A DNA stretch of 64,000 bases from Squalus acanthias (lineage: Eukaryota): contig CM059432.1 of NCBI GenBank assembly GCA_030390025.1, positions 67,892,001 to 67,956,000 of the forward strand. The letters run 5' to 3'. Shown one piece after another: positions 1,364 to 62,147 of the stretch (positions within the stretch are counted from its first letter, which is position 1; each line of letters starts with the position of its first letter). A program made the translations under genes and the position numbers. The notes below the pieces were generated by a model. That model saw nothing but the letters and a program-made list of their open reading frames with translations, was not told where the DNA came from and ran no database searches.

Positions 1364-2024
1364 GGTAGCATAGTGGTTATGTTACTGCACTAGTAATCCA
1401 GAGGCCTGGCCTAATAATCCGAAGACGTGAGTTCAAACTCCACCATGGCAGCTGGGGAATTTAAATTCAGTTAATGAAATAAATCTGGAATAAAAAGCTA
1501 GTATCAGTAATGGTGACCACAAAACTACCAGATTATCGTAAAAACCCATCTGGTTCACTAATGTCCTTTAGGAAAGAAAATCTGCTGCCCTTACCTGGTC
1601 TGGCCTATATGTAACTCCAAACCCACAGCAATGTGGTTGACTCTTGACTGCCCTCTAAAATGTCCGAGCAAGCCATTCAGTTGTAACAAACCACTACAAG
1701 AAACAATAATAAGAATAAAACCAGACGGATCGACCGGCTTCAGACACAACAACAGCACACGTGGCCCACTCGACCCTGCAAAATCCTCCTCACTTGCATT
1801 TGGGGACTTGTGCCAAAATTGTGAGAGCTGTCCCACAGACTAGTCAAGCAACAACCTGACATAGTCATACTCACAGAATCCTCCCTCTCTGCCAATCCAC
1901 AGTGGTGTATAGTCATCAACATGGCATCAGGTCAAACATGGGCAAGGAAACCTCCTGCTGATTACCATCTACCGCCCTCCCTCAGCTGATGAATCAGTAC
2001 TCCTCCATGTTCAACACCACTTGG
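1364..2024 (+). mobile_element. 5' part of a CR1-group LINE (second family) with a tRNA-like head, broken by CR1 insertions
   Basis: Starts GGTAGCATAGTGG...GAGTTCAAA (A/B-box-like). The 5' region and start of the endonuclease are colinear with the minus-strand copy at 54460-56216, and the GQGNLLLITxYRPPSADESVLLH segment is shared with 21850-24495. Confidence 0.7.
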
Positions 2025-2304
2025 AACATAAGGAACATAACAAGCAGGAGTAGGCCATTCGGCCCTTCAAGCCTGCTCCGCCATTCAATAAGATCATGGC
2101 TGATCTTCTACCTCAACTCCTCTTTCCTGCACTATCTCCATATCCCTTGATTCCCATAGTATCCAAAAATCTATCGACACCTTCCTTGAATATACTCAAC
2201 GACTGAGCATCCACAGCCCTCTGGGGTAGAGAATTCCAAAGATTCACAATCCATTGAGTGAAGAAATTTCTCCTCATCTCAGTCCTAAATGGCGCACCCC
2301 TTAT
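2025..2304 (-). mobile_element. CR1 LINE 3' fragment
   Basis: Minus ORF ...RRNFFTQWIVNLWNSLPQ...F...DRFL (CR1 ORF2 C-terminus) plus 3' UTR and CTTATGTT-type tail. Confidence 0.85.
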
Positions 2305-5300
2305 TAAGAACATAAGAAGTAGGAGCAGGAGTAGCCAACCGGCCCCTAGAGTCTACTCCGCCATTCAATAAGATCATGGCTGATCATCGACCTCAACTCC
2401 ACTTTCTCGCCCGATCTCCATATCCCTAGAGTCCAAAAATCTATCTATCTCAGCTTTGAATATACTCAAAGACTCAGCATTCACAGCCCTCTGGGGCAGA
2501 GAATTCCAAAGGTTCACAACCCTCTGAGTGAAGAAATTCCTCCTCATCTCAGTCTTAAATGGCCTACCCCTTATCCTGAGAGTATGCCCCCTAGTTCTAG
2601 ACACTCCAGCCAGGGGAAACAACCTCTCAGCATCTACACTGTCAATCCCCTTCAGAATCTTATATGTTTCAACATAAGAACATAAGAAATAGGAGCAGGA
2701 GTAGGCCAATCGGCCCTTCGAGCCTGCTCCGCCATTCAATAAGATCATGGCTGATCTGATCCTCACCTCAAATCTAAAGAACACAAGAAGTAGGAGCAGG
2801 ACCCGGCCACTCAGCCCCTGGGCCCGCTATGCCACCCACAGGGCCTCGACCGATCCGAACTCAGCCTCATGTCCAATTTCCTGCCCACTTCCCGTAACCC
2901 CTAATTCCCTTTACTTCTAGGAAACTGTCTATTTCTGTTTTAAATTTATTTAATGATGTAGCTTCCACAGCTTCCTGGGGCAGCAAATTCCACAGACCTA
3001 CTACCCTCTGAGTGAAGAAGTTTCTCCTCATCTCAGTTTTGAAAGAGCAGCCCCTTATTCTAAGTTTATGCCCCCTAGTTCTAGTTTCACCCATCCTTGG
3101 GAACATCCTTACCGCATCCACCCGATCAAGCCCCTTCACAATCTTACATGTTTCAATAAGATCGCCTCTCATTCTTCTGAACTCCAATGAGTAGAGTCCC
3201 AATCTACTCAACCTCTCCTCATATGTCCACCCCCTCATCCCGGGGATTAACCAAGTGAACCTTCTTTGTACTGCCTCGAGAGCAAGTATGTCTTTTCTTA
3301 AGTATGGACACCAAAAATGTATGCAGTATTCCAGATGCGGTCTCACCAATACCTTATATAACTGCAGCAATACCTCCCTGTTTTTATAATCTATCCCACT
3401 AGCAATAAAAGCCAACATTCCGTTGGCCTTCTTGATCACCTGCTGCACCTGCATACTAACTTTTTGATTTTCTTGCACTAGGACCCCCAGATCCCTTTGT
3501 ACTGCAGTACTTTCCAGTTTCTCGCCATTAAGATAATAACTTGCTCTCTGATTTTTCCTGCCAAAGTGCATAACCTCACATTTTCCAATATTGTATTGCA
3601 TCTGCCAAATCTCTGCCCACTCACCCAGCTTGTCTATATCCCCTTGTAGGTTTTTTATGTCCTCCTCACTTTCTACTTTCCTTCCCATCTTTGTATCATC
3701 TGCAAACTTTGATATGTTTCAATGAGATCACCTCTCATTCTTCTAAACTCCAGCGAGTATAGGCACAATCTCTCAAAATAGGACAGCCCTCTCATCCCAG
3801 AAATCAATCGAGTGAACATTTGTTGCACCACCTCCAAGGCAAGTATATCCTTCCTTAGATAAGGAGACCAGAACTGTTCACAGTACTCCAGGTGTGGTCT
3901 ACCAAGGCCCTGTACAATTGTAGCAAGACTTCCTTACTCTTATACTCCAACCCCCTTGCAATAAAGGCCAACATGCCATTTGCCTTCCTTATTGCTTGCT
4001 GTACTTTCATGCTAGCTTTCTGTGTTTCTTGCACAAGGGCACCCAAATCTCTCTGAATACCAACATTTGAAAGTTTCTCACCATTTAAAAAATATTCTGT
4101 TTTTCTATTCTTCCTACCAAAGTGAATAACCTCACACTTTCCTACATTATACTCCATCTGCCACCTTACTGCCCACTCACTTAGTCTATCTATATCCCTT
4201 TGCAGACTCTTTGTGTTCTCTTCACAGCTTACTGTCCCACCTAGCTTTGTATCATCAGCAAACTTGGATTCATTACACTCAGTCCCTTCATCTAGGTCAT
4301 TAATATAGATTGTAAATAACTGAGGCCCCAACACTGATTCTAGCAGCACCCAACTAGTTACAGCCTGCCAACCTGAAAAAGATCAGTTTATCCCTACTCT
4401 CTGTTTTCTGTCCATTAACCAATCCTCTATCCATGCTACGATATTACCCCCAACCCCATGAGCCCTAATCTTGTGTAATAACCTTTTATGTGGCACCTTA
4501 TCGAATGCCTTTTGGAAATCCAAATATATTATATCCACTGGTTCCCCTTTATCGACCCTGTTTGTTGCATCCTCAAAAAACTCTAATAAATTTGTCAAAC
4601 ACGATTTCCCTTTCATAAAACCATGTTGACTCTGCCGAATCATATTATGATTTTCTAAGTGACTTGATACCACTTCCTTAACAATGGATTCCAGCATTTT
4701 CCCGATGACTGATGTCAGGCTAACTGGCCTGTAGTTCCCTGTTTTTTCTCTCCCTCCTTTCTTGAATAGCGGTGTTATATTTGCGACCTTCCAATCCGCT
4801 GGGACCATTCCAGAATCTAGGGAATTTTGGAAGGTCAAAACCAATGCATCCACTATCTCTTCAGCCACCTCTTTCAGAACCCTAGGATGTAGGCCGTCAG
4901 GTCCAGGGGATTTGTCGGCTTTTAGTCCCATTAGTTTCTCTTGTATTTTTTCTCTACTTATATTAATTACGATAAGTTCCTCATCCTCATTAGACCCTTG
5001 GTTCCCCATCATTTTTGGTATGCTTTTTGTGTCTTCTACTGTGAAGACAGATACAATATATTTGTTTAACGTTTCTGCCATTTCCTTATCCAACATAATA
5101 ATTTCTCCTGTCTCAGCCTCTAAGGGACCAACGTTTACTTTTGCTGCTCTTTTCCTTTTTACATACTTGTAGAAACTCTTACAATCTGCTTTTATATTTC
5201 TTGCTAGTTTTCTCTCATATTCTATTTTTTCCCTTTTTATCATTTTTTTGGTCAACCTTTGCTGGTTTCTGAAACTCTCCCAATCCTCAGGCTTGCTATT

Positions 5301-6112
5301 ATTCTTTGCAACATTATAAGCTTCTTCTTTCAATCTAATGCTATCCTTAACTTCTTTAGTTAGCCACGATTGGATCACTTTTCCAGTGGAGTTTTTGTTT
5401 CTCAATGGAATGTATTTTTGTTGAGAATTATGAAATATTTCTTTAAATGCTAGCTACTGCTTATCTACCACCATACCTTTTAATCTATTTTCCAATCTAC
5501 CTTAGCCAACTCGCCCCTCATACCTCTGTAATTGCCTTTATTTAAGTTTTAAGACTTTAGTTTTGGACTTAGGCAAGTCACTCTCAAAATTAACGTGAAA
5601 TTCTAAAATATTATGATCACTCTGCCCCAGAGGATCTTTTACTATGAGATTGCTAATTAACCCTGTCTAATTACACAGTACAAGATCTAAAATAACCTGT
5701 TCCCTGGTTGGTTCCATGACATATTGTTCTAGGAAACTGTCCCGAATGCATTCCATGAACTCGTCCTCCAGACTGCCTTTGCCAAATTGATTTGTCCAGT
5801 CTATATGAAGATTAAAGTCCCCCAAGATTATTGCATTACCTTTGTTGCAAGCTCCAACTATTTCTTGATTAATAATCTGTCCAACAGTACAGCTACTGTT
5901 GGGGGCCTATATACTACTCTGTTTTCTGCCCCTTGTTATTCCTTATCTCCACCCATACTGATTCTACTTCCTGATCTTCTGAGCCGAGATCCTTTCTCGC
6001 GAATGTCCTTATGTCATCCTTTATTATCAGGGCTACTCCCCCTCCTTTTCCATTCTGCCTGTCTTTTTGAAACGTCAAGTACCCTGGAACATTTAGTTCC
6101 CAACCTTGCAAC
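2305..6112 (-). mobile_element. Long CR1 LINE (ORF2 endonuclease-RT, frameshifted), interrupted by a CR1 at 2673-3711 and by the LTR element at 6113; continues at 15440-15546
   Basis: ORFs 4383-5405 (KSPGPDG, NYRPVSLTS, QHGF, YLDFQKAFDKV), 3855-4349 (SVLGP..F.IYINDL, KFADDTK) and 5914-6112 (endonuclease GKGGGVAL). 3' tail at 2305. Confidence 0.9.
2673..3711 (-). mobile_element. 5'-truncated CR1 nested in the long CR1, with 11-bp flanking duplication
   Basis: ORF 2867-3688 is the CR1 RT C-terminal part; tail at 2673; ATATGTTTCAA occurs at both 2662-2672 and 3712-3722. Confidence 0.85.
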
Positions 6113-6689
6113 TGTAGAATTCGCAATATATCGCGATTTTATTAATAAGGAGAAAAACACAGAGTTTCGTTCAAACAGCTTTTATTCCAGCAGAATGCTG
6201 TCAGGTTTTCAAAGTGGACACAAGCAGCTTGTAAAATGGCCGCCGCACCTCGTGACAGAACATTCTAGACTTTTCGACAGGCAGACAAGATGGCGTTCCA
6301 ATAAACATTTGTGCAAGATCGATTAAGACTCAGCACATTTAAGATAATACACGAGACATCATGGGTTTACAGTATACACATAAATACTGAAATCGGTCTC
6401 CCAGGTGCGAATAAGAGCTATTGTACCAAGTAATCAAGAACCCATCCAAAGACATTAATATGTAAAATCCCAACGACTCTACGATGAGAGAGCCGTTAGC
6501 GGGTAGTTACAGAAAACACTTGGAAGCCCCAAAACTCCTCCAGGGAGAACACCGACCGATTAAACAATGGGAGAAATATTAACAGGTACTCAGACAGTTA
6601 CGAGTAGCCCCGAAACCCATTAAAACGAAGATCACCCTATACAAGACATTTGAGCGCCAAACCCTAACAAAAGAAAAGACATTAAGGTT

Positions 6690-6720
6690 GGGCGGGAAAC
6701 GGAAGATTTTGCACTATAAT
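6690..6720 (+). promoter_or_regulatory. Candidate LTR core promoter (GC box, ETS-like site, TATA-like box)
   Basis: GGGCGG 6690-6695, CGGAAG 6700-6705 and TATAAT 6715-6720, with a pyrimidine-rich initiator-like tract ~25 nt downstream. Motif inference only. Confidence 0.45.
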
Positions 6721-7491
6721 TGCAAGCTCCAAACCGTCCATCTCTCTCTTATTCTTGGCTCTTGACTCTTGACTCTTATCCTCGTGGCTGCCCTTGACTC
6801 GCCGTCTTGTTCCTGTTTGATGAACTGGGCTCTGAAGCCTTGAAGCGGGCGCACCATCCCGATAAGTCGGTAAACGGTGTTGGAACCGAAGGCCCGAGAT
6901 GAGATGAGATGAGATGAGATGAGATGAAAAGAGAAGAAGACCATACTTATCGCCACGGTCAGTAAGCTCCGACCGCGCCTGTAGGTCGAATAGACATTTT
7001 CCTTGCCAGGAAGACTTCTTCGAGTTTTACAGAACTGCCAGGAAGATTATTCTTCGAATTCTATCGCATCCGTGCGAGGGCACAGGAAGACTCTTTTTTG
7101 AGTAGAGTCGGAACTCCGAGGACAACACAGATCTTCATGACAGCAGACGTTCCAGCCTGCTAGCCGGAGCAGAAACGAGTAAACAAGTGGGGCCAGGAGA
7201 CCCCCTGATCGACACGTGGGCGCTGCGGTGAAAAACATCCGATCAGAGTTTTCGGAATTCTCCGAGTTATCACGAGTGGTGAGCATGAGTCTCGAATCCT
7301 ACGAATCTAGCTTAGGACAGATATTGATAGGGGAGGGTTTTAAGTATTAAGGATAATTGTAATGTGTGCCCCCATTTACGATGTGTCGTTCGTTCCTCGT
7401 TTCCCTGAAATTAATTACATAACTGCGTGTAAGATTGTACTGTCATTAATCTGTGCTTATGACATGTATTTCGTAATCTTAAATATTATGC

Positions 7492-7497
7492 AATAAA
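7492..7497 (+). promoter_or_regulatory. Candidate LTR polyadenylation signal (equivalent 15195-15200 in the 3' LTR)
   Basis: AATAAA downstream of the putative promoter in both LTRs, in an AT-rich context. Confidence 0.5.
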
Positions 7498-7741
7498 GAT
7501 TTTCCATTTCGTACCATTCAACCGAGTCTACCTGAGTTTCATCTCCATTACTGCTCTCGCATCTAAGTCCAGTGTCTAGAACCGTAAGGGCGAGTGGGTC
7601 GAACCACTCACAGGTGTGTCTAGTGCTCCCAGACTGGCTGGAGACCAGAACAGGCAACAAGGCCTAAACCCGCACTAGCACCCGGGCTGCACAGAGCCAC
7701 ACGAATCTCACAGGCTGAGAGACAAAAAACCCTTACAGAAA

Positions 7742-9549
7742 ATGGCGACCGCGGCAGGACACTGGCAGCGAGAGAATAATGTGTTCGACCCTGGTATGAA
7801 TGGGCGAAATGTCATGGAAGAGAGAATAGCAGATTATGTGTTCGGAAAAGTAAATTTGACTAAGAAATGGATAAGTGACCTGCTAGTGGATAAGTGTCCA
7901 CTAGAGGCAGCCGAGAGGTGGACAGATAGTAAGGAACATAAAAAGACAGTCGAGAAAGCAGTCTGGTTAATGTGTTATAAAAGGCAGGTCCAGATTTCAA
8001 ACCAGGTCATTACAGCGCAGGCAGCTCAGATCAAGAGTTTAGAGGTGGAAATGGACGAGAAGGTCGCGGGGGGGGGCAGCAGCTCATCACGACTTTAAAT
8101 GCGTTACATCAAGAACGCCAGTTAGTCACCAACCACCATGAAGCAAAAATAGATTACCTCGAGTGCCAGGTCACCGAGGCAAAGTTAAGTGAGGGTAGAT
8201 TAAAGGAACGATGTGCCCGCCTAGCTGCCCAAATAAAAGCCCAGGAAGAGAGCTTAACGGGGTTTAGGGCGGCATATAAGATGGCCCTCGAGGATAAATT
8301 TCAGGGGGCCGATCACAGCGTCTGCCAAAGAGAGATAGGGAACCTTAAAAATGCCTTGAACAAAGCGCACGGCATGGTGTGCCTTATCAGTCCGTCAGCA
8401 CACCAGCCGCTAGTAGATGAGGAGTTTCAGAAATCCCCACCGAACAAAGCAAAGGAAGTATTAGCCACTACGCCCTCCGCGCCACCCAGCTATTCGGCAA
8501 CCTGGGTGAGGGAGGAAGTAGTAGAAGAAACGAAAGAGCCCACTGAGGGAGAAGTGGAAAAGGGACCGTTGTGTCCGGTTACGGGTATCAAAAGAGGCCC
8601 GAACGGAGCGAATGCGGCAGAGGGGGATCTCCTCAACCAGCTTGTGTTGCCTCACAGCTCACACCAGCTGAGGGTTATGATCAGTCACGTACGGAAGCTG
8701 GCCGAGTCAGACGACCCTTCCGTACATTTCAGGGAAGTAGAGCAAACCGCAGCCATTAACGGCTGCGATGATGGGGAAAAAGCAAAAATGCTGTTATTCT
8801 CATTAGACAGCTCGATCCTTCAGTGTCTCTCAGACGAGAGCAAGAGGGGAATTAATACCTATGGGGAGCTAAGAGATGAGGTCCTAGAAGTGTTGGGAAT
8901 GGACGATGAAGGTCCGTTCGTTAGACTGGGACAAACAGTGCAGATGGAGGGAGAACCCCCGAAGGTTTTCGCCGACAGGCTGTGGCCAGTATATCAACGT
9001 AGCTGCCCAGGCGCACCAGCGCGTCACCGCCTAGACGGTGTCGGTTTAACTCATTGGCTCAGGTGTATAGTAGCCAACAGTTTGCCAGCCGTCAGGGAGC
9101 AGGCCAAAGCGTGGTTTGATCCCACTAACCCCGCCACAACAGAGGAGTCGGTCCTAAATCGACTCACGGTAGGGTACCGTAATACCAGGAGTATGGGAGC
9201 ACGTCCCCTTAAGGGAAAGGTGCATGAGGTACGACCCGCAGCCCCGGCTCAAAAGGAGTGGCATCAGGAGGGTAACCGCGCCCCGCAGGCCAGCAATGCT
9301 TGTTACGGGTGTGGGAAGACAGGGCACTGGCGCAAGAACTGCAGGAACCCTTGGAAGGATTCCAGGGATAGAAATCCCGCGGTCCGAGCCCAGGCGCCTG
9401 TCTCTGATAGGGGAGCTAGTGCACCCATCCATCCCGACGCGATCGAATCAGTGTTGGGAGCCATGCGCAACCTCATGAGTGCGCATGGAAGGGTGGCGGT
9501 TGCTACCGGCCCCGCAGGTGCCACAGCCCCGTCCAATAGTACCCAATGA
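7742..9549 (+). CDS. gag: Gag polyprotein (~602 aa if the frameshift in the G9 run at 8068-8076 is corrected)
   Basis: ORF 7742-8098 joins the frame that is open from 8077 to 9549. N-terminal coiled coil; PSAPPSY 8473-8493; MHR-like QMEGEPPKVFADRL 8941-8982; zinc knuckle CYGCGKTGHWRKNC 9301-9342. Confidence 0.85.
7743..7760 (+). other. Primer-binding site, tRNA-Arg (TCG type)
   Basis: TGGCGACCGCGGCAGGAC, 5 nt after the LTR end, is the reverse complement of ...GTCCTGCCGCGGTCG-CCA, which I recall as the 3' end of vertebrate tRNA-Arg(TCG). Confidence 0.85.
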
Positions 9550-10659
9550 CTAGAGCCCACGCAGCCTGCCTACCTGTGTCCTTTTAAAAGACACGCACAG
9601 GAGGGGCTCTCCGGTGAGGAGGCCAGGTTAAAAGAGCAGGCCTTGCGGGAGGAGAACGCCCGCTTAATAGGGAAAATAGATGGGCTGGAAGGGCAGCTTA
9701 GAGAGCAGGCCCTGCGGGAGGAGAACGCCCGCTTAATGGGAAAGTTAGACGTGCTCAGGCTAGAAGGGCAGCTTAGAGAGATAAAAGCAGCCTACAAGGG
9801 AGCCAGAAGCAGGGATTTAAACCAGTGCAAACTGTACAAGCCAGGTGCACAAGGGAAAACCACAGGGGCAAAACCTGCGAGTGGGGACTCGCAGCCCCAG
9901 GTAGGACCACAGGGCACACAGGCAGGCAGAGCAGCTTGCATCAGGGAAGGAGGCATCCTGGAAAATTGTGAAACATTTTTGTGGGGTTGGGAGTCAGATG
10001 AGGGAGAGTTCCGGGAACTCAAGTCAGATGAGGATAGTGAAGGTAGTGGAGAGTGGGTATCGGAGGACGCAAGGGTCGCCCCCGATTCAGGTATAGGGAG
10101 GACAGGGGCTGCAGATAGAGATCCACACAGGGTGGACACCGAGGCTGCAGGTCCCGAACACAGGAGGGAGGAGCTAGGGGAGGCGGAGTCAGCCACTGTG
10201 AGACCACAGGGCGTGACGGCGGAAACCTCAGAGCCCGAGCCGCCCGCCTTGAACGTCCTGCCCTCGAGGGAGGTAGGGATTGCGAGTGAAGGGCCGCCTG
10301 CTGGGCCGAGCAGGGCGGTGCCACAAGCTGCAAGTCCCGAGGTCAGGGAGGCGGAGTCAGGGGAGGCGGAGCCAGCGACTGTGGTGGGACCACAGGCCGT
10401 CCCGGTGGAAGTCTCGGAACCCGGTCCGTCGGTCCTGGGATTCCTGCCCCCGACAACTCCTCGTAGGTCAAGTCGAGCACCCCAGCCCAGGAAAATGTGG
10501 TCATGTCCCCAGACTGCCCCAAGGCGTAGGCTCAAGGTTAGGGCAGCCCAGGAAGGGCCCAGTCCCATCGCAGCAGCAACAGGCTACGGCAGATCAAAGG
10601 AAGGGGTCAGTGCCCTCCCACCGTCGGGAAGAGCTCGCAGCAGCCTTCTCAGAATTTAA
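9550..10659 (+). CDS. In-frame ORF after the gag stop (369 aa; coiled coil plus acidic/Pro-rich disordered region) occupying the pol position, with no PR/RT/IN motifs
   Basis: Open in the gag frame from the codon after TGA 9547-9549 to TAA 10657-10659. Contains a 69-bp tandem duplication from 9634 and a duplicated GEAE.ATV..PQ.V..E.SEP.P..L..LP segment. Confidence 0.6.
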   Translation, partial: LEPTQPAYLCPFKRHAQEGLSGEEARLKEQALREENARLIGKIDGLEGQLREQALREENARLMGKLDVLRLEGQLREIKAAYKGARSRDLNQCKLYKPGAQGKTTGAKPASGDSQPQVGPQGTQAGRAACIREGGILENCETFLWGWESDEGEFRELKSDEDSEGSGEWVSEDARVAPDSGIGRTGAADRDPHRVDTEAAGPEHRREELGEAESATVRPQGVTAETSEPEPPALNVLPSREVGIASEGPPAGPSRAVPQAASPEVREAESGEAEPATVVGPQAVPVEVSEPGPSVLGFLPPTTPRRSSRAPQPRKMWSCPQTAPRRRLKVRAAQEGPSPIAAATGYGRSKEGVSALPPSGRARSSLLRI

Positions 10660-10691
10660 AGGGGCCGCCCTGGGAACGGGCGGCGCTGTAC

Positions 10692-10844
10692 AGTAATAAG
10701 TTTAAGTTTAGGATAAGTTTCTAGGTTTATAGTTTAAGGTTAAGAATAAGTTTATAGTTTTAGAAAAGGTTATAAGTTTATAGTTTTAGATAAGGTTATA
10801 AGTTTATAGTTTTAAATAAGGTTAAGTTTGTAGTTTAATTTTAA
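10692..10844. repeat. AT-rich, almost C-free tandem repeat (26-bp period)
   Basis: ATAAGTTTATAGTTTTAGAWAAGGTT-like units start at 10746, 10772 and 10798; only one C in ~150 nt. Confidence 0.85.
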
Positions 10845-11017
10845 CAGAAAATGGCAAAATGATGGGAGCTTTAGAGATAGGTCTAGTTAAAGTTTATTTA
10901 GTGAACATTGAAGTTTACGTGAGGCGAGGTCAGGGGACCCGCTCACCCTTCACAAAAGCCAGAGACTCTTGCGAGGCTGGCTACCTCATTCTATCTGATC
11001 ACAGGAACCAAGGAAGG

Positions 11018-13369
11018 ATGGAACGAATTCTAGTATTGCTCGCGGCAATCGGATGTGGATTGGCCTATCGAGGCCGCACCAAGGATGTCGTGGTGTTTGG
11101 ATGCTCCGGGGACACGGCCCCCATCGCGGTGGATGGGACCGGAAGACGGGAGGCTGAGGAGACCACCACCTATTTCCACAAGGGAAGGTGGCCAGGATGG
11201 CTGGGAACAAACTCAACGGAGTATTCTAGCACATCGGGGTTTGCCTACCAAGAGACTTCTTTAATGTGCCCCAAAGTAAGGATCATCGCACCCAGGATCA
11301 GCGTCACCGTCGGCAAACGGATTTGTTTGACTTGTAATGGGAATGTCCCATTGAGCCGATGGTGGTGGCTGCGAAAGCTGAGCAAAAACATGAGGAACTC
11401 TTCGGTCGAGTGGGAACGACTGGGTAATAATACCCATCGGACAATTACGGGGACAAACGGACAAGTGAGAGTCTGTTGGGACAAATGGTGGGAACCGGAT
11501 GAGGGAATTTATGTATGCATGTGGGGGTCAAAGTACGCTTGCCCCAAAGGCATCTCCATATTTTTCATTAATCAATGGCAGGATAACGGACAGGGGATGA
11601 GGTGGGATGCGAGCACCAGGGGGTGCGGAGCCCCATACTCTTCGATCCCGGTAAATGCCACTGAGCTCATTACGCGCCCACGCAAAGCCCCGCCCACGAT
11701 TCCGGTGGTTCTAGCTAAAGAGGAAGGGTGCCCTAAAACTAGTAAGGGACCCGGGAATGGTTTGGTACTGGTCCCCACAGACCAGATACTATTTCAGGGG
11801 GTACATTACGCGGTGGCCTCGGTGATTTTAAATCTCACCGAGGTGCGGTTACCAGAGTGGTGCCCCAAAAAGACGGAACAGTTATATCAGGTCCTGTTGA
11901 CCAAGATGTTCAGACAATTTTACGAATTCGATTTTGCGGAAATTGATAAAACAAGTTTGTACACCGCACCACATGAAGTTTCTGATCAGGTGGGGAGGCA
12001 AAGAAGGGGTGTAGTGAACGACGCGTTCACTGCTTTTAACACGGGTACATCTGTGGTCAACGCTCTAGACAGCGTGGAGCTGCAGACCCAGATTAATGGT
12101 TTAAAGACGCAATTAAAAGACATTCTAACAGATGAAAATAAAGTGGTTGGGTCGGGTTTACACGAGGACCAAGCAATAACTCTCCATTTAAAGGAAATTA
12201 TAGCAGAGTTAGAGAAACATGCAAAGACGGTAAATGCCCTGATTAGGGAAGATCGGAATGCATCCGATCAAGCTGCGCAGAATGAGGTGTGCGTGCTTTA
12301 CGGGGCGTGGTTACTGGGCGAGGGCCGCAGTAATTTGGAGGATTTAAAACAAGGTTTGGTCCCGTCCTGGATAAGTAACAAACACCTGCGGGCGCTCCAC
12401 CCTTTTCAGAACGCATTAAGCCCGTGCCAGCTCAGGCTAGCTTCAGAAGCATACCCAGTCCCCGTGGACTGCGGACGATCAAACCATACTATCATGGGTA
12501 TAGTATTACGTATGCCGGTTTTGGGCGACACAGCAAAGCCCGCCCCGGTGTATCGGGTAGAGAACATTGGTGTCATTCAGGGGGGAGCCCACATTCGCTA
12601 TGCAGCGGTTCCACCCTACGTCATCCGCTGGGAGCAAACGATGACAGGTACAGATCTCTCTGGTTGTCGTGGCAGGGGAGCACACATAATACTGTGACCC
12701 CAGCACTTGAATGCCTTTTTAACACCACAGTGCGGGTTCAGAACGGCTGGCGCCAAGTCCATGAATTGCACCATGGAGGCAATGGCACAAGATCATGTGC
12801 CTCCGCAGGTAGCATACATCGGGGGTGGAACATATTGTGTTACCACTGCAGCGCAACACTACCAGCATGGAAACCGTAGCCGGTGTCCGGTGAGTGACAG
12901 CAGTTTCTGTTTCAAACCCAGGGCGGAAGTTCAAGTAGCACAACAGCGAATTGTCCCAATCCCTGAACCATCCACGGTTCATCTCACCGTAAAAGAGAAT
13001 TTCACCGACTTGCAGCGATTCGTCGCGCATTTCGGATACCTCATTCCCCCTCTCCCTGAACACCTCACCAAGCTTTTGAAAGCCGTCGCGGTGTCACAGA
13101 AACATTTTTACACACTCGAGCAGAAAACTGTCGAAATAGGGACAGACATTCTGGATATAGTAATTCCACCGTGGTGGAATCTGTTCACCAATATTGAAGT
13201 ACCTTCATGGATCAGAATAGCCTCCCACATTTTAGTCGTATGCCAAGTTTTTATTGTAGTGTACCTATTGGTCGTACATTGTAAGAGAGGCAAACGCCTC
13301 ACCAAGCATGAAAACACGGGAGAGTGGCGAGAACGTTATGTGCACGTGCACAACGAAAGCACCGTGTAA
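11018..13369 (+). CDS. env: Envelope glycoprotein, class I F-like fusion protein with N-terminal Ig-like domain (783 codons; one in-frame TGA at 12695-12697)
   Basis: Signal peptide MERILVLLAAIGCGLA; Ig motifs; furin site RQRR 11996-12007 followed by a fusion-peptide-like segment and heptad repeat; Cys-rich F1-like core; many N-x-S/T sequons; TM segment ~13210-13280; short tail. ORFs 10859-12697 and 12707-13369 are in the same frame. Confidence 0.88.
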
Positions 13370-13806
13370 TCGGAAAATGGCGTCACTCCCGCTTGCCACG
13401 TGCGCCGCGGAAGTTTGTACTCGATCATGATTTTCAAAGACTGTAAATACGTTTGGAACTCGACATGTTTTAAGAGTTGGTGTTGATTATTTTGGTGATG
13501 GTGTTGTAGTTAAAAATGATTGTTTGGTTTTGGTTTTGTTTTCCTTTCCCTAAATAAAAAGATGAATATACAGGTGATATGAAAGGCATCGGCCTGGTTA
13601 CGCCGGGAAGGAAAACAAGTGGTGTAAGTTTAAAGGCAAATGATGCCTACGGTGATATAAAGTGTAATTTTCTTGGGAAATAAGGACGACGCAAAGACCC
13701 TAGATAGTTTAAGTTATGGGTTTAAATTTTCTGGATTCGGAGAAAATCGAGATAATATTGCTCACCACTATTTTTTGATACGATAAGCGGAGTTATTCGC
13801 ATCAAC

Positions 13807-13814
13807 AAGAGGGA
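13807..13814 (+). other. Short polypurine tract
   Basis: AAGAGGGA immediately upstream (1-nt gap) of the 3' LTR start TGTAG at 13816. Confidence 0.6.
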
Positions 13815-13815
13815 C

Positions 13816-15439
13816 TGTAGAATTCGCAATATATCGCGATTTTATTAATAAGGAGAAAAACACAGAGTTTCGTTCAAACAGCTTTTATTCCAGCAGAATG
13901 CTGTCAGGTTTTCAAAGTGGACACAAGCAGCTTGTAAAATGGCCGCCGCACCTCGTGACAGAACATTCTAGACTTTTCGACAGGCAGACAAGATGGCGTA
14001 CCAATAAACATTTGTGCAAGATCGATTAAGACTCAGCACATTTAAGATAATACACGAGACATCATGGGTTTACAGTATACACATAAATACTGAAATCGGT
14101 CTCCCAGGTGCGAATAAGAGCTATTGTACCAAGTAATCAAGAACCCATCCAAAGACATTAATATGTAAAATCCCAACGACTCTACGATGAGAGAGCCGTT
14201 AGCGGGTAGTTACAGAAAACACTTGGAAGCCCCAAAACCCCTCCAGGGAGAACACCGACCGATTAAACAATGGGAGAAATATTAACAGGTACTCAGACAG
14301 TTACGAGTAGCCCCGAAACCCATTAAAACGAAGATCACCCTATACAAGACATTTGAGCGCCAAACCCTAACAAAAGAAAAGACATTAAGGTTGGGCGGGA
14401 AACGGAAGATTTTGCACTATAATTGCAAGCTCCAAACCGTCCATCTCTCTCTTATTCTTGGCTCTTGACTCTTGACTCTTATCCTCGTGGCTGCCCTTGA
14501 CTCGCCGTCTTGTTCCTGTTTGATGAACTGGGCTCTGAAGCCTTGAAGCGGGCGCACCATCCCGATAAGTCGGTAAACGGTGTTGGAACCGAAGGCCCGA
14601 GATGAGATGAGATGAGATGAGATGAGATGAAAAGAGAAGAAGACCATACTTATCGCCACGGTCAGTAAGCTCCGACCGCGCCTGTAGGTCGAATAGACAT
14701 TTTCCTTGCCAGGAAGACTTCTTCGAGTTTTACAGAACTGCCAGGAAGATTATTCTTCGAATTCTATCGCATCCGTGCGAGGGCACAGGAAGACTCTTTT
14801 TTGAGTAGAGTCGGAACTCCGAGGACAACACAGATCTTCATGACAGCAGACGTTCCAGCCTGCTAGCCGGAGCAGAAACGAGTAAACAAGTGGGGCCAGG
14901 AGACCCCCTGATCGACACGTGGGCGCTGCGGTGAAAAACATCCGATCAGAGTTTTCGGAATTCTCCGAGTTATCACGAGTGGTGAGCATGAGTCTCGAAT
15001 CCTACGAATCTAGCTTAGGACAGATATTGATAGGGGAGGGTTTTAAGTATTAAGGATAATTGTAATGTGTGCCCCCATTTACGATGTGTCGTTCGTTCCT
15101 CGTTTCCCTGAAATTAATTACATAACTGCGTGTAAGATTGTACTGTCATTAATCTGTGCTTATGACATGTATTTCGTAATCTTAAATATTATGCAATAAA
15201 GATTTTCCATTTCGTACCATTCAACCGAGTCTACCTGAGTTTCATCTCCATTACTGCTCTCGCATCTAAGTCCAGTGTCTAGAACCGTAAGGGCGAGTGG
15301 GTCGAACCACTCACAGGTGTGTCTAGTGCTCCCAGACTGGCTGGAGACCAGAACAGGCAACAAGGCCTAAACCCGCACTAGCACCCGGGCTGCACAGAGC
15401 CACACGAATCTCACAGGCTGAGAGACAAAAACCCTTACA
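13816..15439 (+). repeat. 3' LTR (1624 bp)
   Basis: Direct repeat of 6113-7737; ends CCCTTACA, followed by TSD CAAC. Confidence 0.97.
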
Positions 15440-15546
15440 CAACCATGTCTCTGTAATGGCTATTAGATCAAACCCATTTATCTCTATTTGTGCCACTAGT
15501 TCGTCTATCTTGTTACGAATGCTTCGTGCATTTAGATAAAGTTCTG
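15440..15546 (-). mobile_element. Continuation of the interrupted CR1 (endonuclease N-terminus)
   Basis: Minus translation LYLNARSIRNKIDELVAQIEINGFDLIAITETWL joins QGWELNVPGY on the other side of the LTR element. Confidence 0.9.
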
Positions 15547-16967
15547 AGACTGAGCCCGTGAGACTCTCCAGCCAAGGGAAACATCCTCCCTGCATCTACC
15601 CTGTCAAGCCCTGTAAGAATTTTGAATGTTTCAATGAGATCACCTCTCATTCTTCGAAACTCTAGAGAATATAGGCCTAGTCTACTCAATCTCTCCTCAT
15701 GGGACAATTCCCCCATCCCAGGAATCAGTCTGGTGAACCTTTGTTGCACTCTCTCTATGGCAATTATATCCTTCCTTAGGTAAGGAGACCAAAACTGTAC
15801 ACAATGCTGCAGGTGTCATCTCACCAAGGCCCTATATAATTGCAGTAAGATGTCTTTACTCTTATACTCAAAACTTTTTGTAATAAAGGCCAACATACCA
15901 TTTGCTTTCCTAATTGCTTGCTGTACCTGCATATTAACTTTCAGCGATTCATGTACAAGGACACCCAGCTCCCTCTGAACACCAACATTTCCCAATCTCT
16001 CACCATTTAAAAAATACTCTGATTTTCTATTTTTTCTACCAAAGTGGATAACTTCACATTTCTCCACATTATATTGCTATTGCCATGTTCTTGCTCACTC
16101 GCTTAACCTGTCTATATCCCCTTGCAGCCTCTTTACATTCTCCTCACAACTTACATTCCCACCTAGCTTTGTATCTTCAGCAAACTTGGATATATTACAT
16201 TTGGTCCCCTCATCTACATCATTGATATAGATTGTAAATAGCTGAGGCCCAAGCACTGATCCTTGTGGTACCCCACTCGTTGCAGCCTGCCAACCCGAAA
16301 ATATTCCTACTCTCTGTTTTCTGTCTGTTAATCAATCTTCAATCCATGTTAATACATTACCCCCAATTCCATGAGCCCTAATTTTGTTTAATAACCTCTT
16401 GTGTGGCACCTTATCGAATGCCTTCTGAAAATCCAAATACACCACATCCACTGGCTCCCCCTTATCTATCCTGCTAGTTACAACCTTAAAAAACTCTAAC
16501 AGAGTTGTCAAACATGATTTCCCTTTCATAAATCCGTGTCGACTCTGCCCAATCCTATTATTACTTTCTAAGTGCCCTGTTACCATGTCCTTTATAATAG
16601 ATTCTAGCATTTTCCCTACTACTGACGTTAGGCTATCTGGTCTATAGTTCCCCGTTTTCTCTCTCCCTCTCTTAAATAGTGGGATTACATTTGCTACCTC
16701 CCAATCCGCGGGAACCGTTCCAGAATCTATGGAATTTTGGAAGATGACAACCAATGCATCCATTATCTCTATAGCCAACTCTTTTAAAACCCTAGGATGT
16801 AGACCATCACATCCAGGGGATTTATCGCCTTTCAGTCTCATTAATTTCTCCAGTACTATTTCCTTACTAGTACTAATTTCTTTCAGTTCCTCATTCTCAC
16901 TAGACCCTCGGTTCTCTACTATTTCCAGAATATTTTTTACGTCTTCTGCCGTGAAGACAGACACAAT
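15547..16967 (-). mobile_element. CR1 LINE RT fragment
   Basis: ORFs 16332-16964, 15816-16067 and 15513-15749 carry CR1 RT motifs. Confidence 0.9.
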
Positions 16968-16969
16968 TT

Positions 16970-17183
16970 GGGCTGGATTTTTACCAGCCCTAAGGAGGTG
17001 GGTTTCGAGGCAGGACTACTGGGAAAATGGGAAAAATTGGGAGCGGGTCCCAACCCCGCTCCCAACCCGCCTCCGAACTATCTTCCCGGGAGGCAGAGGA
17101 CCCAATTAACTGCCTGTTATCAGGTAGTTAACAGGCAGTTAAGTGGCTTTTCACCATTTTACGCCTGCTGAAGCGGGCTTCCC
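16970..17183. mobile_element. Terminal fragment of the Harbinger-type MITE family
   Basis: Begins GGGCTGGATTTTTACCAGCCC; colinear with 214-450. Confidence 0.65.
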
Positions 17184-17688
17184 TTGGAGGCGGTGCAACG
17201 AAGGTTCACTAGATTGATTCCTGGGGTGAGAGGGCTGTCCTCTGATGATAGATTGTGTAGAATGGGCCTATACTGTCTGGAGTTTAGAATAATGAGAGCT
17301 GTTCTCATTGAAACATACAAGATTCTGAAGGAGATTGACAGGGTAGTTGCTGAGAGGTTATTTCCCCTGGCTGGAGTGTCTAGAACTAGGGGGCATAGTC
17401 TCAGGATAAGGGGTAGGCCATTTAAGACTGAGATGAGGAGGAATTTCTTCATTCAGAGGGTTGTGAATCTTTGGAATTCCCTGTCCCAGAGGGCTGTGCA
17501 AGCTGAGTCTTTGAGTATATTCAAGGATGAGATAGATACATTTTTGAACTCTAGGGGAATCAAGGGATATGGAGATCGAGCGGGAAAGTGGAGTTGAGGT
17601 CGATGATCAGCCATGATCTTATTGAATGGTGGACCAGGCTCGAGGGGCCGTATGGCCTACTCCTGCTCCTATTTCTTATGTTCTTATG
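17184..17688 (+). mobile_element. CR1 LINE 3' fragment
   Basis: ORF 17184-17597 is the CR1 C-terminus; tail CTTATGTTCTTATG. Confidence 0.9.
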
Positions 17689-17689
17689 A

Positions 17690-20610
17690 TAGTGTCCTTA
17701 CAGGAGATGGGTTTGGAAGAAGTATACTTGTGAGAGTCAGTGGGCTTGTATAGATGTCAGTAGAAAGCCCAGCACCAGAGATAGAACAAAGTCCTTCAAG
17801 GGAAGGGAAGGGTCAGAGCTAGACCATGTAAAGGTGAAGAATGGATGGAAATTGGAAGTATAGCTAATGAAATTCTCGACATCAGAATGAGAGCAGGAAG
17901 CGGCACCAACATAATCAATAGAGGAAGAGGTCGGGGGGTAGTGGGGGAATGCCTTAATAGGATTGGAACAAAGAATTTTCCACGTATCCTACAAAAAGAG
18001 CATATCTTGGGCTCATGTGGGTTTCCATAGCAAAACCTTTTATCTGAGGGAAATGAATGGCGTTAAAAGATAAGTTGCTCATGATGAGAACAAGTTCAGC
18101 TAGGAAAAGGAGGATGGTGGTGGACAGGGACTGGTTGGTCCACTGCTGAAGGAAGTTGACAAATTTTGTCTGTCCTGCTAAGAGAGACTGAATATCCATG
18201 TTAATGAGGAGATAATTGGGGCTGGACAATCTGAGATTGTTAAAGTGGCAGAAAGCATCAGAAATGTTATGGATATAGATGGATAGGAACTGAATAAAGC
18301 AGTAATGATTGAGCCTAGACAAAAGAAATTTAGATTGGTGGAACAGGAATAGGCTAAAATAATCAATCTGCTGGGACAGTCCTATTTGTGTTTCCTAGGA
18401 TGGAGCTATAAATGAGCTGTACGGTGCTGGGGAACAATTGGACTTGAGGTTGTTGCAGAAAAATAACTGGACGAAGTGAGATTAGTAACAATCTGGAAAA
18501 TTATGCTTGGGGTTCAATAGTAGGATTGTGGTCTCGAGGGAGATACGGAGTCATCATAAAATTAACACTCAGCCTTAGACAGGTAGAGGTTCGGCTGAAA
18601 TACAACAACAGCACTTCATTTTCAGCGGGTTTAATGATGATGTCAGGGTTGAAGCTGAGATAGCAGAGAGGAACAAGTTCAGAATGGGGGGGTAGAAAAA
18701 ATGAGACAGCTGATATCACAGCCGCAGTTCTCAATGAAAATGTCAAGGGACCAAAGGGTGTAAGGATAAACCCAGCAACTACAGGCCAGTCAGTTTAACC
18801 TCGGTAGTGGGGAAGCTTTTAGAAACGATAATCAGGGACAAAGTTAACAGTCATTTGGACAAGTGTGGATTAATTAAGGAAATCCAGCATGGATTTGTTA
18901 AAGGCAAATCGTGTTTAACTACCTTGATTGAGTTTTTTGATGAGGTAACAGAGAGGGTTGATGAGGGCAATACGGTTGATGTAGTGTATATGGATTTTCA
19001 AAAGGCATTATAAAGTGCCACATAATAGGCTTGCCAGCAAAGTTGAAGCCCATGAAGTAAAAGGGACAGTGGCAGCATGGATATGAAATTGGCTAAGTGA
19101 CAGGAAACAGAGAGTAGTGGTGAACGGTTGTTTTTCGGACTGGATGAAGGTATGCAGTGGTGTTCCCCAGGGATCGGTACTAGGACCACTGCTTTACTTG
19201 ATATATATTAATGACTTGTACTTGGGAGTACAGGATACAATTTCAAAATTTGCAGATGACACAAAACTTGGAAGTATAGTGAACAGTGAGGAGGATAGTG
19301 ATAGACTTCAAGAAGACAGACAGGCTAGTGAAATGGGCAGACACATTGCAGATGAAATTTAAAGCAGAAAAGTGCGAAGTGATACATTTTGGTAGGAAGA
19401 ATGAGGAGAGGCAATATAAACTAAAGGGTACAATCCTAAAGGAGGCGCAAGAACAGAGAGACCTGGGGGTACATGTGCGCAAATCATTGAAGGTGGCAGG
19501 GCAGGCTGAGAAAGCGGTTAAAAAAGCATACGGGATACTGGGCTTCATAAATAGAGGCATAGAGTACAAAAGCAAGGAAGTTATGATGAAACTTTATAAA
19601 ACACTGGTTCGGTCTCAACTGGAGTATTGTGTCCAATTCTGGGCACCACACTTTAGGAGGGATGTGAAGGCCTTAGAGAGGGTGCAGAAAAGATTTATGA
19701 GAATGATTCCAGGGATGAGGGACTGCAGTTGCGTGGATAGATTAGAGAAGCTGGAGCAGAGAAGGTTGAGAGGAGATTTGATAGAGATATTCAAAATCAT
19801 GAGGGGTCTAGACAGAGTAGATAGAGAGAAACTGTTCCCATTGGTGGAAGGGTCGAGAACTAGAGGACACAGATTTAAAGTGATTGGCAAAAGAACCAAA
19901 GGCGACATGAGGGAAATCTTTTTTATGCAGCGAGTGGTTAGGATCTGGAATGCACTGCCTGAAAGGGTGGTGGAGGCAGACTCAATCGTGGCTTTCAAAA
20001 GGGAATTGGATAAGTATCTGAAGGAAAAAAATTCGCAGGGCTATGGGGAAAGGGTAGGGGAGTGGGACTAGCTGAAGTGCTCTTGCAGAGAGCCGGCACG
20101 GGCTCGACGGGCCGAATGGCCTCCTTCTGTGCTGTAACCATTCTATGATTCTAGGTGAGACAGGAGACAGAAGAAGGGGTCGAATTACGGAGAGAGGGGA
20201 CCAAAAAAGAAGTCCTGGAAGTAGAGGTAATAGAAGATGGGCTTAGCATCATGTCGAATTCCAAAAACGTTCAAGTGGGGACATAAGATGAAGAAACTCA
20301 AGCCTTTGCTCAGGACAGATTATTCAGGGTCAGAAAGGGACCGTCAGAGGGATGGTGGAAATCCAGCAAGAAATAAGATTAGGGGGTGGAACAGCATCCA
20401 AACTGTGCATGAACTTCTGGTTCTTAACATTTGCAAGGAAGAAAATGCAGACAGCATCGGCTCAATCTTTACAGTAGCTATCCTGGTCCTCAATTCCACA
20501 ACATCCTTCATCTCATTTACTTTAATAAAGAAAACTTTTCTTCTCCTTCTCTCCATGTGGGGGAGCACCTGAGCAATAATAATCATTCAATCATCAGATT
20601 TCAGTTGGTT
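17690..20610 (-). mobile_element. Degenerate Penelope-like element RT remnant, split by the CR1 at 18760-20153
   Basis: Minus-strand MDIQSL, QIKGFAMETHMSPRYALFVGYVE and DIIIKPA resemble the Penelope RT motifs MDV.SLY, Q..GVAMGT.MGP.YA.LF and IKPADKG. Boundaries approximate. Confidence 0.55.
18760..20153 (+). mobile_element. 5'-truncated CR1 LINE (ATTCTATG-tail subfamily)
   Basis: QHGF, YMDFQKA, GVPQGSVLGP, KFADDTK, ORF 19286-20071; tail TTCTATGATTCTA. Confidence 0.92.
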
Positions 20611-48080: not shown

Positions 48081-48225
48081 CTAGCACACACACACAAACA
48101 TACTCCTACTGTCCTCCTCCTTCCTTCCCGCAGGTCCTCTCTGCCTGGGTTTCATAGGCTGCAGTGTGGTCCTCCCGACCCCGCTGCTGGTCCACGCTGC
48201 GCCACTCCTGGGCGTCGACCTCGCT

Positions 48226-48766
48226 GCTGGGCTCGTCCTCGCCCCTGGGCCTCGTCCTCGCCCCTGGGCCTCGTCCTCGCTCCTGGGTCCCGACCTCGCT
48301 CCTGGGTCCCGACCTCGCTCCTGGGTCCCAACCTCGCGCCTGGGCCCCGTCCTCACCCCTGGGCCCCGTCCTCGCCCCTGGGTCCCGACTTCGCTCCTGG
48401 GCCTCGTCCTCGCTCCTGGGCCTCGACCTCGCTCCTGAGCCCCGTCCTCGCCCCTGGGCCTCGTCCTCGCCCCGGGTCCCGTCCTCGCTCCTGGGTCCCG
48501 ACCTCGCTCCTGGGCCTTGACCTCGCTCCTGGGCCTCGACCTCGCTCCTGAGCCCCGTCCTCGCCCCTGGGCCTCGTCCTCGCCCCGGGTCCCGTCCTCG
48601 CTCCTGGGTCCCGACCTCGCTCCTGGGCCTTGACCTCGCTCCTGGGCCTCGACCTCGCTCCTGAGCCCCGTCCTCGTCCCTGGGCCTCGTCCTCGCCCCG
48701 GGTCCCGTCCTTGCTCCTGGGTCCCGACCTCGCTCCTGGGCCTCAACCTCGCTCCTGGGTCCCGAC
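48226..48766. repeat. GC-rich 19-bp minisatellite (CTGGGTCCCGACCTCGCTC variants) with a 113-bp higher-order repeat
   Basis: About 28 units; the diagnostic CTGAGCCCC variant recurs at 48435, 48548 and 48661. Confidence 0.95.
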
Positions 48767-50017
48767 AGGCTGTCTAAGCAGCCAATCAAAACACAGAATT
48801 CGCACAGACAGCGAACAAGGAAGTGAGTAAGCTCTTAAAATTCTAACATTTTAAACATGTTAGAGAGAGCAAAACAAATATTGGAGCTCTCACATGGGGA
48901 AAAGGGAAACCCTAAATAAAGATGAACAAACTTTTTTTTTTTTAAATAATTTTTGAAAAACATTTTTAAAAATTTTTTATTTTTATTAAAATGGATAAAT
49001 TTGACACTGCACAAAACTAAAAATGAGTTTTTCAGGGCCAGAACCTTTGTTTAGCAGTCAATACACTGTTAAAACTCCAGTTACACCTAATCACATTAGG
49101 ACTAACTTTTAGTGGGGAATTTAACAGAGTAATTACTGCAGAAGAGCTGAAGTTTTCATCAGTTTTCCTGATTTGAGAGATTACACTGATTGCCGGCTCT
49201 GTGACGGGGGTCGGGGGGCGGGGGGGGGAGGGGGGCAGCGGTGTGGGTGGGCACAGCGCAGCCAGTGTCGGAGCAGTGAATGACAGACTGCAATTTCAGA
49301 ATTTCCGCATGCACTTGCACATGCGCCAAATCCCGAAGTTGTGGTCAGTTTCAAAGCCGGAATGACGGCGAACGCTACCAGTTCGCTGTCATCCGGACTG
49401 CAAATTCTGGGCCAATGTAAAATATCTTTAATAGTATGCATCAAAGTAAAATATGTTCTGATGTTATTTTGATTTTTTTGAAATTAAGTCATACATCATA
49501 ACTGGTAAATATGCCACATTTAAATGTAATATATAATGAGCATAGTAGGTATGTTACCAATGCAAAAATGTAATTATTTTAATTTACATTTGTTTCTTAG
49601 GTATGTCAAGAAGCTATGGTATGTTATACCTTGCTAAACATTTATGTTCATGTTCCTTCATACCAGGCAAGGGGGAATTTATTAAAATCCATGTGAATTT
49701 ATTGTGCTGTTATGCTCACATATCAACAATTTTTGTTAATGCCTTTCATTCAAAGGCAGCTGATGTGTCAGTAACAACTGCCCTCATTTTATATTCTGAT
49801 ACTTTTGCTTAACGCAGGTTTTGTTCATTCAAGGTTAGGGGCCTCTGGAAGCATTTCTCAGAATACACCGTATCGATGAGCTACTGATCTAGAGCACAAA
49901 TTTAGGCAGAAAAATCAAACCAATATCAAACAAAAGATAAATGATGACTACCTAAAAAGAAAGAATTGCCTTTCACGACTTCAGGACCTCTGGAAATGTT
50001 TTACAGCCAATGAATTA

Positions 50018-60193: not shown

Positions 60194-60252
60194 CACTAAG
60201 TTTAAGCCTCAGTGATATGCTTTTACATTTAAGCTATTTATGATATTAAAAA

Positions 60253-61828: not shown

Positions 61829-62147
61829 TGAGTGATAGTTTTATTATTCCAGGAAAAGTTTGCATGCTCTGTGTCATAAGCACCTTTTTATTCTGCTTTA
61901 TTGAAGGGTCCTTCCTAAAGAGAGAACCTATTAGTTGAAAGTGGAAATACTTCTAAAAAAGGGATGGAGCTGCCATGTTGTAGAATTACATCTGGAGTTC
62001 CTGTTGAAAATTATTTTGATTCATGAATTTGTATAGGCTGCCTCCTATACATACTTCAGACTATAAGTAACCACTGCTGAAATAATGTACCAGTGAAGAA
62101 TGAAATATGATTTAAATTCAAGATGAATCCTGGAGTGTTTTGTTTTT

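Follow-up and report, generated by a model that had tools for sequence, protein, structure and literature searches.

What an endogenous retrovirus (ERV) encodes behind gag once its enzymes are gone, and why such a frame should stay open, is the question raised by a provirus in the dogfish Squalus acanthias. It lies in a stretch of 64,000 nucleotides ('the window': assembly GCA_030390025.1, contig CM059432.1, positions 67,892,001 to 67,956,000, forward strand), whose first letter is position 1 of the coordinates used here. The gag gene of this provirus ends ACC CAA TGA CTA GAG, with the stop at 9547, and, as an original prediction made from the letters of the window had pointed out, 369 codons then stay open in frame, to 10659. 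This open reading frame (ORF), called X here, is a pol from which the enzymes have been removed; it consists of 11 codons from the start of pol, a captured coiled coil of 78 codons and a tail of 280 codons. The best explanation, to which sequence comparison gives about an even chance, is that the element is a helper-dependent ERV in which an inherited UGA-CUAG readthrough stop would make Gag-X as an enzyme-less stand-in for Gag-Pol.

Composition of ORF X

The frame and its parts are as follows.

9547 to 9553, + strand: TGA-CTAG, gag-pol readthrough-type stop, also found in pol-bearing relatives
9550 to 9581, + strand: start of pol, 32 bases (11 codons before the protease core)
9582 to 9817, + strand: coiled coil, acquired from a third related family's gag and containing a duplicated unit of 69 bases
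9818 to 10659, + strand: 3' end of pol, comprising the final residues of the integrase SH3 domain followed by a disordered tail of 280 codons
9931, within the tail: word like those at other pol domain borders, a putative protease site
10459 to 10500, + strand: basic motif R-R/K-S-x-R-x-P-x-P-x-x-x-W, present in all related families sampled

Base shuffling, repeated 20,000 times, produced an open frame of this length once. In copies whose gag is the same (94-98% identical as protein), the same TGA-CTAG is followed by a pol that can reach about 1496 codons and encodes protease, reverse transcriptase (RT), tether, RNase H and integrase. These pol-bearing partners share their long terminal repeats (LTRs), gag and env with the copies that carry X (X-type copies) in the same genome. 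When X is set against this pol, 291 of its 369 codons prove to be pol (9550-9581 and 9818-10659), 819 bases being 98.5% identical in DNA to the 3' end of pol in a pol-bearing copy. The start of the tail portion at 9818 was placed by DNA comparison within the last residues of the integrase SH3 domain. Relative to the parent pol about 3.6 kb have been deleted and 236 foreign bases inserted, and the net change is divisible by three (the distance from stop to tail is 3649 in pol-type and 268 in X-type copies). The X-type element itself encodes no protease, RT or integrase. The original prediction had held that the downstream frame is not Pol and that Pol had been replaced by an unrelated protein; both statements have to be given up, since X is a pol that has lost its interior and gained a stretch of gag from another family. 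Its description of the frame has held up better. There is no strong start near the 5' end, the only in-frame ATGs lying at 9736 (codon 63, with T at -3) and 10495, and the coiled coil and disorder read from the letters agree with a single-sequence fold of the product, in which residues 22-94 form one helix with high confidence and the rest is disordered. That X is built in this way, and that its stop was inherited from pol-bearing relatives, is almost certain.

Exact junction patterns place X-type elements at no fewer than 876 positions in the genome (at least) and pol-type elements at at least 639. The primer-site pattern has 3495 matches, of which 429 lie behind a tRNA T-loop. A sample of 40 consecutive primer-site loci (L185-L224, omitting three already sampled) held 10 X-type copies with the coiled coil and two of a second deleted type. 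X-type copies also occur in head-to-tail runs with a spacing of about 7.7-8 kb (G000:C3295:86900-118600; C1:143657000-143674000; C661:55000-71300).

The UGA-CUAG stop

TGACTAG stands at the end of gag in 77 of 77 X-type copies and in 56 of 59 pol-bearing copies; two of the other three read TGACTGG, and the third (L043) has CGA in place of the gag TGA. Of 792 genome matches, the first 100 included 96 with the same word, and in the 40-locus sample, which covers four or more families, 33 TGACTAG and four TGACTGG were counted among 37 scored loci (three were left unscored for stop context, one of which reads TGACGAG). The stop is also present in three other families. It is regarded as inherited because pol-bearing relatives have the same TGA-CTAG directly before protease, and this arrangement, which the original prediction had proposed to look for, agrees with its view of the stop as a Gag-Pol switch. 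The parent element has no other evident route to its protease. UGA-CUAG at the gag-pol junction is thus very probably, judging by its place before protease, a true readthrough site.

At human UGA-CUAG sites readthrough ranges from 0.5 to 6.4% and is tuned by the sequence up to +27 (10.64898/2026.07.14.738498), and the 32 bases of pol retained in X span this window. A low-abundance Gag-X fusion, as first proposed, is still the likely product on prediction. The gag-pol readthrough contexts given in the available part of a retrovirus review are UAG-GGA/GGC, UGA-AGA, UGA-CGA and UGA-AGU, with UGA-CUAG not among them (PMC13517186). A literature search, with subscription papers and Repbase outside its reach, returned nothing on UGA-CUAG at a gag-pol junction or on the present ERV family. 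In the lokiretrovirus supplement of PMC7947760, as far as it was available, four of 17 TGACTAG matches lie, by eye, in frame before a protease motif (supplement parts 19, 31, 47 and 54); the accessible main text of that paper does not mention readthrough. UGA-CUAG, known from cellular genes, would be added to the retroviral gag-pol switches.

Origin of the inserted helix and the deletion series

The donor of the coiled coil in X is the gag of a third related family. A first comparison of the insert with Gag coiled coils gave weak scores (z 3-6), and comparison with the gag of the third family (L201, L217), which came to light in the primer-site sample of the same genome, gave a DNA score of 213 against a shuffle maximum of 84. 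Between this gag and older versions of X, dS (synonymous divergence) is 0.14-0.26. The older versions (L194, L214, L221) retain more of the donor gag: the helix is followed, after a linker deleted in frame, by part of capsid and then by a pol tail. In later steps the capsid piece was lost, the 69-base unit was duplicated and triplicated, and the helix was rejoined to family-1 pol at several points; the captured cassette is present in family-1 and family-2 backgrounds. Of two other sources considered, the gag of the element itself matches less well (z about 3, and in DNA no better than shuffles), and the C-terminal helix of integrase was rejected, its z against pol being at most 0.7. When the insert was searched as protein, 880 candidates included no true relative, and 1.84 billion representatives yielded just two repeat-rich chance matches.

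A second architecture occurs in families 2 and 3 and consists of TGA-CTAG, half a protease, the RNase H/integrase border and the tail, with 363-364 codons when open. Its breaks at a C-run vary between copies. In L201 the last junction lies 2-3 codons upstream of the border word of the tail, and all 3' junctions stop short of this word and of the motif. The junctions, deletions and duplications specific to X number about a dozen, and the blocks are joined in the frames of their donors.

Selection on the frame

Differences found in at least three copies (shared) were taken to have passed through replication, and private differences mostly not to have done so. In the pol enzymes, which served as a positive control, the ratio of nonsynonymous to synonymous change (dN/dS) was 0.07-0.22 for shared and 0.4-1.2 for private differences. 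X-type gag (0.24-0.55) and env (0.04-0.12) are under purifying selection. Among the 77 X-type copies, shared insertions and deletions (indels) in X were 12 in frame and none shifting, and private ones 11 and 14. Since 20 of these copies had been picked for open frames, the test was repeated without them on 66 copies, including nine primer-site copies, none picked for an open frame. X is open in 46 of these, and shared indels were again all in frame (nine, with none shifting, against 14 and 14 private; p=0.007). Five of the nine fall in the insert or at a junction, and one shifting indel is common to two neighbouring copies on one contig. The non-coding spacer behind X has two in-frame and five shifting indels, and gag has two shared shifting indels, one of them in a G-run. 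Of the stops in the tail none is shared and seven are private (p=0.006).

The X-specific 5' cassette, compared in deep pairs (dS 0.2-0.4), has a dN/dS mostly of 0.17-0.55, and pooled disjoint pairs without CpG changes give p=0.0004-0.005. The captured helix thus appears from these comparisons to be under amino-acid constraint, with dN/dS near 0.3. The evidence for selection that is specific to X is the junction series and this cassette. It is very probable that selection keeps the frame of X. The original prediction had taken the uninterrupted frame as a hint of selection and had suggested comparing frame and dN/dS among copies. That comparison bears out selection across the family, in the shared indels and the helix; the uninterrupted frame of a single copy is by itself weak evidence, because this copy is very young and the tail has been repeatedly refreshed from pol-bearing copies.

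The tail behind integrase

The tail varies between families from about 60 to 280 residues, and across families it keeps the word resembling other pol domain borders, at which cleavage by protease may occur. The basic motif is retained in tails of every length sampled; its R, S, R, P and W are invariant in 13 sequences and basic residues follow it. The Pol taken as that of snakehead retrovirus (SnRV) ends in an arginine-serine-proline run; in most of the relatives from frogs and coelacanth, Pol stops with the SH3 domain. It is known that arginine-rich viral segments of the murine leukaemia virus (MLV) p12 and of foamy Gag tether cores to nucleosomes (PMC9040877), and the motif of the tail is, by its composition, a candidate nuclear or chromatin tether. 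A complex prediction for the motif with host H2A-H2B scored 0.00 (without alignment, by a method untested for peptides) and is counted neither way.

Interpretation

The preferred explanation, a helper-dependent ERV with Gag-X in place of Gag-Pol, would work as follows. In-frame loss of protease, RT, RNase H and integrase from pol would leave the enzymes to be supplied by relatives, and a few percent of ribosomes would read through UGA-CUAG to give a rare Gag-X fusion. This fusion may enter particles together with the element's own Gag, where the captured helix could provide a further point of contact with other Gag molecules or with the helper's Gag-Pol. The protease of the helper might then cut at the retained border word and so free the tail, whose basic motif might act as a nuclear or chromatin tether. 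Retention of the tail would restore the dose of tether when the Gag of the parasite dilutes helper Gag-Pol; the tail would be kept where the enzymes were dropped because enzymes are catalytic, so that a few borrowed copies suffice, and a tether is needed in numbers. All derivatives sampled drop the enzymes and keep the readthrough stop and the tail, which indicates a cis-acting or dose-limited function at the end of Pol.

A number of observations weigh against this explanation or against selection on X. RNA folding found no stable structure downstream of the stop (z -1.4 to +0.7). X is broken in 20 of the 66 unselected copies, the second architecture is open to its end in just two of 12 copies of one sample, and the older X copy L214 has a frameshift at a junction. 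For the insert as a whole dN/dS is 0.41 and the difference between shared and private changes is not significant (p=0.19). In two deep pairs the 5' cassette has a dN/dS of 0.6-0.73, and single pairs over codons 1-62 lie mostly above 0.05 (p=0.04-0.28). The site counts behind dN/dS ignore transition bias, private changes giving 0.83 and not 1, so that this bias could inflate the apparent constraint on the cassette, and re-capture from donor gag could import the signal. For the tail dN/dS is 1.05-1.14 in X and 0.68-1.16 in pol-bearing copies. Of 15 X tails tested, 13 match a tail from a pol-bearing copy at 95-100% identity and the remaining two at 92% and 82%, and the clean state of the tail, without shared stops or frameshifts, is therefore largely inherited and not specific to X.

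A drifting tail in a kept frame (dN/dS about 1) is what would be expected if translation itself were selected. Readthrough would then sweep UPF1 off the RNA, protecting unspliced RNA from nonsense-mediated decay, or would favour packaging in cis, and in the Moloney MLV system readthrough has been reported to stabilise RNAs with long 3' untranslated regions (PMC4917968). This alternative is rather unlikely, as the captured helix appears constrained in its amino acids, every 3' junction spares the border word and motif, and X spans just about 1.1 kb of the roughly 5 kb downstream of the gag stop.

The near-identity of X tails to pol-bearing tails in each subgroup, the nearly identical LTRs and the numerous broken copies could also be explained if X were a passive relic, kept open by recombination with pol-bearing relatives, youth and lucky in-frame junctions. 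The 5' cassette speaks against such a relic, being confined to X-type copies and having reached a dS of 0.2-0.4 without shared stops or shifts at a dN/dS near 0.3, as do the two architectures and about a dozen junctions in frame; we consider this explanation improbable. That X is an accessory protein with its own start at the ATG of 9736, translated from an RNA that is spliced or begins internally, the stop context being a leftover, is more improbable still, for while codon 63 is the first Met in 65 of 77 copies and a pyrimidine run ends in AG at about 9570-9590, the ATG has T at -3, the 62 codons upstream of it stay in frame with the stop, including the shared 69-base duplication, and the second architecture has no such helix or start.

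The explanation by a helper-dependent element with a Gag-X stand-in can be carried further. The tail may be a separate, protease-released chromatin or nuclear tether of a basal lineage, a p12-like function placed in pol; parasites may twice have converged on a leaky stop plus tail, one of them with a Gag helix added from another family, by which it could hook onto helper particles; and UGA-CUAG may be an old switch shared with lokiretroviruses. This extended proposal is tentative, and as a whole we hold it to be doubtful. The provirus family is young and of many copies, and Gag-X is likely to be a rare fusion aiding spread with the enzymes of relatives. The helix donor, the second architecture, the tail motif and the selection tests are new here. 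Natural deletion series of this kind reveal which parts of a polyprotein are not borrowable from a helper.

Provirus anatomy and state of the window copy

The remaining features of the provirus are as follows.

6113 to 15439, + strand: LTR-flanked provirus with a 4-base target-site duplication
6109 to 6112 (left) and 15440 to 15443 (right): the 4-base target-site duplication
6113 to 7737, + strand: 5' LTR of 1625 bases, TG...CA
7743 to 7760, + strand: primer-binding site complementary to tRNA-Arg(TCG), overlapping the gag ATG at 7742
7742 to 9549, + strand: gag, with N-terminal coiled coil, capsid and one CCHC knuckle
10660 to 11017, + strand: spacer with AT-rich minisatellite, variable in length, used as the non-coding indel control
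11018 to 13369, + strand: env, F-type fusion protein with a furin-like site at 11996
13804 to 13813, + strand: polypurine tract
13816 to 15439, + strand: 3' LTR

The two LTRs differ by two substitutions and one indel. Owing to the overlap of the gag ATG with the tRNA-Arg primer site, the bases of the site also code for the first residues of Gag; this ATG is absent from families 3 and 4 (L201, L217, L220, L188, L203). The primer site is matched by tRNA-Arg(TCG) genes of the same genome, and a large tandem array at G000:C26:38990000-42220000 (L242-L244) contains tRNA-Arg(TCG) and tRNA-Ser(GCT) genes, the unit recurring about every 1623 bases. The best named relative of Gag is a skate protein (56%), and the zf-CCHC match of gag (E=0.003) is below the curated cut-off. 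In the window copy gag is frameshifted near 8070-8100, so that full Gag-X from the gag start is impossible in this copy, and env is interrupted by a premature TGA at 12695. No + strand ORF of at least 100 codons lies between env and the 3' LTR of this copy, and a minus-strand frame of 263 codons at 9792-10583 has no Pfam match. The word GAAAATGGC occurs at the LTR-primer junction (7738), before env (10845) and directly behind env (13374). Within the spacer the minisatellite between X and env (10690-10850) is AT-rich and very variable in length between copies. Elsewhere in the window, at 48224-48804, 2000-5500, 15560-17700 and 60250-61830, there are a minisatellite with a unit of 19 bases and, in either orientation, numerous dispersed LINE-like fragments.

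Classification and comparison with known systems

RT trees were built with references labelled by motif or length, the second and more careful tree keeping 41 of 122 rows. The RT of the family groups with true retroviruses and is split by a 100/99 branch from eel proteins taken as lokiretroviral by RT motif (compared by eye). In the careful tree it stands at a basal fork with SnRV and with frog and coelacanth ERVs, with no resolved clade shared with SnRV, and in the quick tree in the same 14-row group as SnRV (support 89). By RT sequence the family is therefore placed as a basal true retrovirus and not a lokiretrovirus. A search of viral contigs with the RT gave no match. Env is F-like (PF00523 cluster, score 0.94, a lead obtained without alignment) and by eye resembles the published lokiretrovirus Env; an F-type Env beside a non-lokiretroviral RT bears on the origin of retroviral Env. 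In the env region at 11018-13369 there are also weak immunoglobulin-like matches, to PF13927 (E=0.26) and to junction adhesion molecule (E=0.84). The gene model of a frog Pol relative (P0005) continues, in its C-terminal 130 residues, into an immunoglobulin-like stretch, which hints at an immunoglobulin-bearing Env in frog relatives.

Lokiretroviruses (PMC7947760) share with the present elements the F-type Env, the dual RNase H (tether and RNase H in the pol-bearing relative) and the coiled-coil Gag, but the present RT groups with true retroviruses. They were reported from none of six cartilaginous-fish genomes, and their non-autonomous element BHIKHARI differs in keeping gag only (PMC7947760; 10.1101/2024.03.25.586437). 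The lokiretroviral 'smc' gene was considered as a counterpart of X and rejected, since headings in the supplement of PMC7947760 put it upstream of gag. The locus L225, taken as SnRV by its size of 10,688 bases and its UAG-GGC stop (PMC12193657, PMC13517186), resembles the present family in RT (33% identity over pol 19-772), in a coiled-coil Gag with CCHC, in an in-frame gag-pol stop and in a short basic Pol tail. It differs in stop context, and the present element has no accessory ORF behind env and an env similarity that is not significant (E=0.18). More widely, gamma- and epsilonretroviruses and unclassified fish and frog retroviruses also have an in-frame stop between nucleocapsid and protease (PMC13517186; XtERV-S, PMC8278194), but in other contexts, and no downstream structure was found in the present element.

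The proposed analogue of the tail motif is the short arginine-rich segment that in MLV p12 and in foamy Gag anchors the incoming core on chromatin (PMC9040877). Those segments are Gag products, whereas the present motif lies behind integrase, and the likeness would be a functional one.

The closest parallel in lifestyle is the mouse intracisternal A-particle (IAP) 1-delta-1 element, likewise a non-autonomous ERV with an in-frame internal deletion and a gag-pol fusion, mobilised by intact relatives and as numerous as its helper or more so; its fusion has been reported to act in cis (PMC6466679). In IAP 1-delta-1 gag is partly deleted and fused directly to pol, whereas here gag is whole and the stop is kept, so that the fusion depends on readthrough and is predicted to be minor. 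The present element is for these reasons not a member of that group, and it differs further in carrying the Gag helix of another family, in an env under selection and in its two architectures. It provides a second, independent case of the puzzle posed by IAP 1-delta-1, that of why non-autonomous retroviruses stay in frame.

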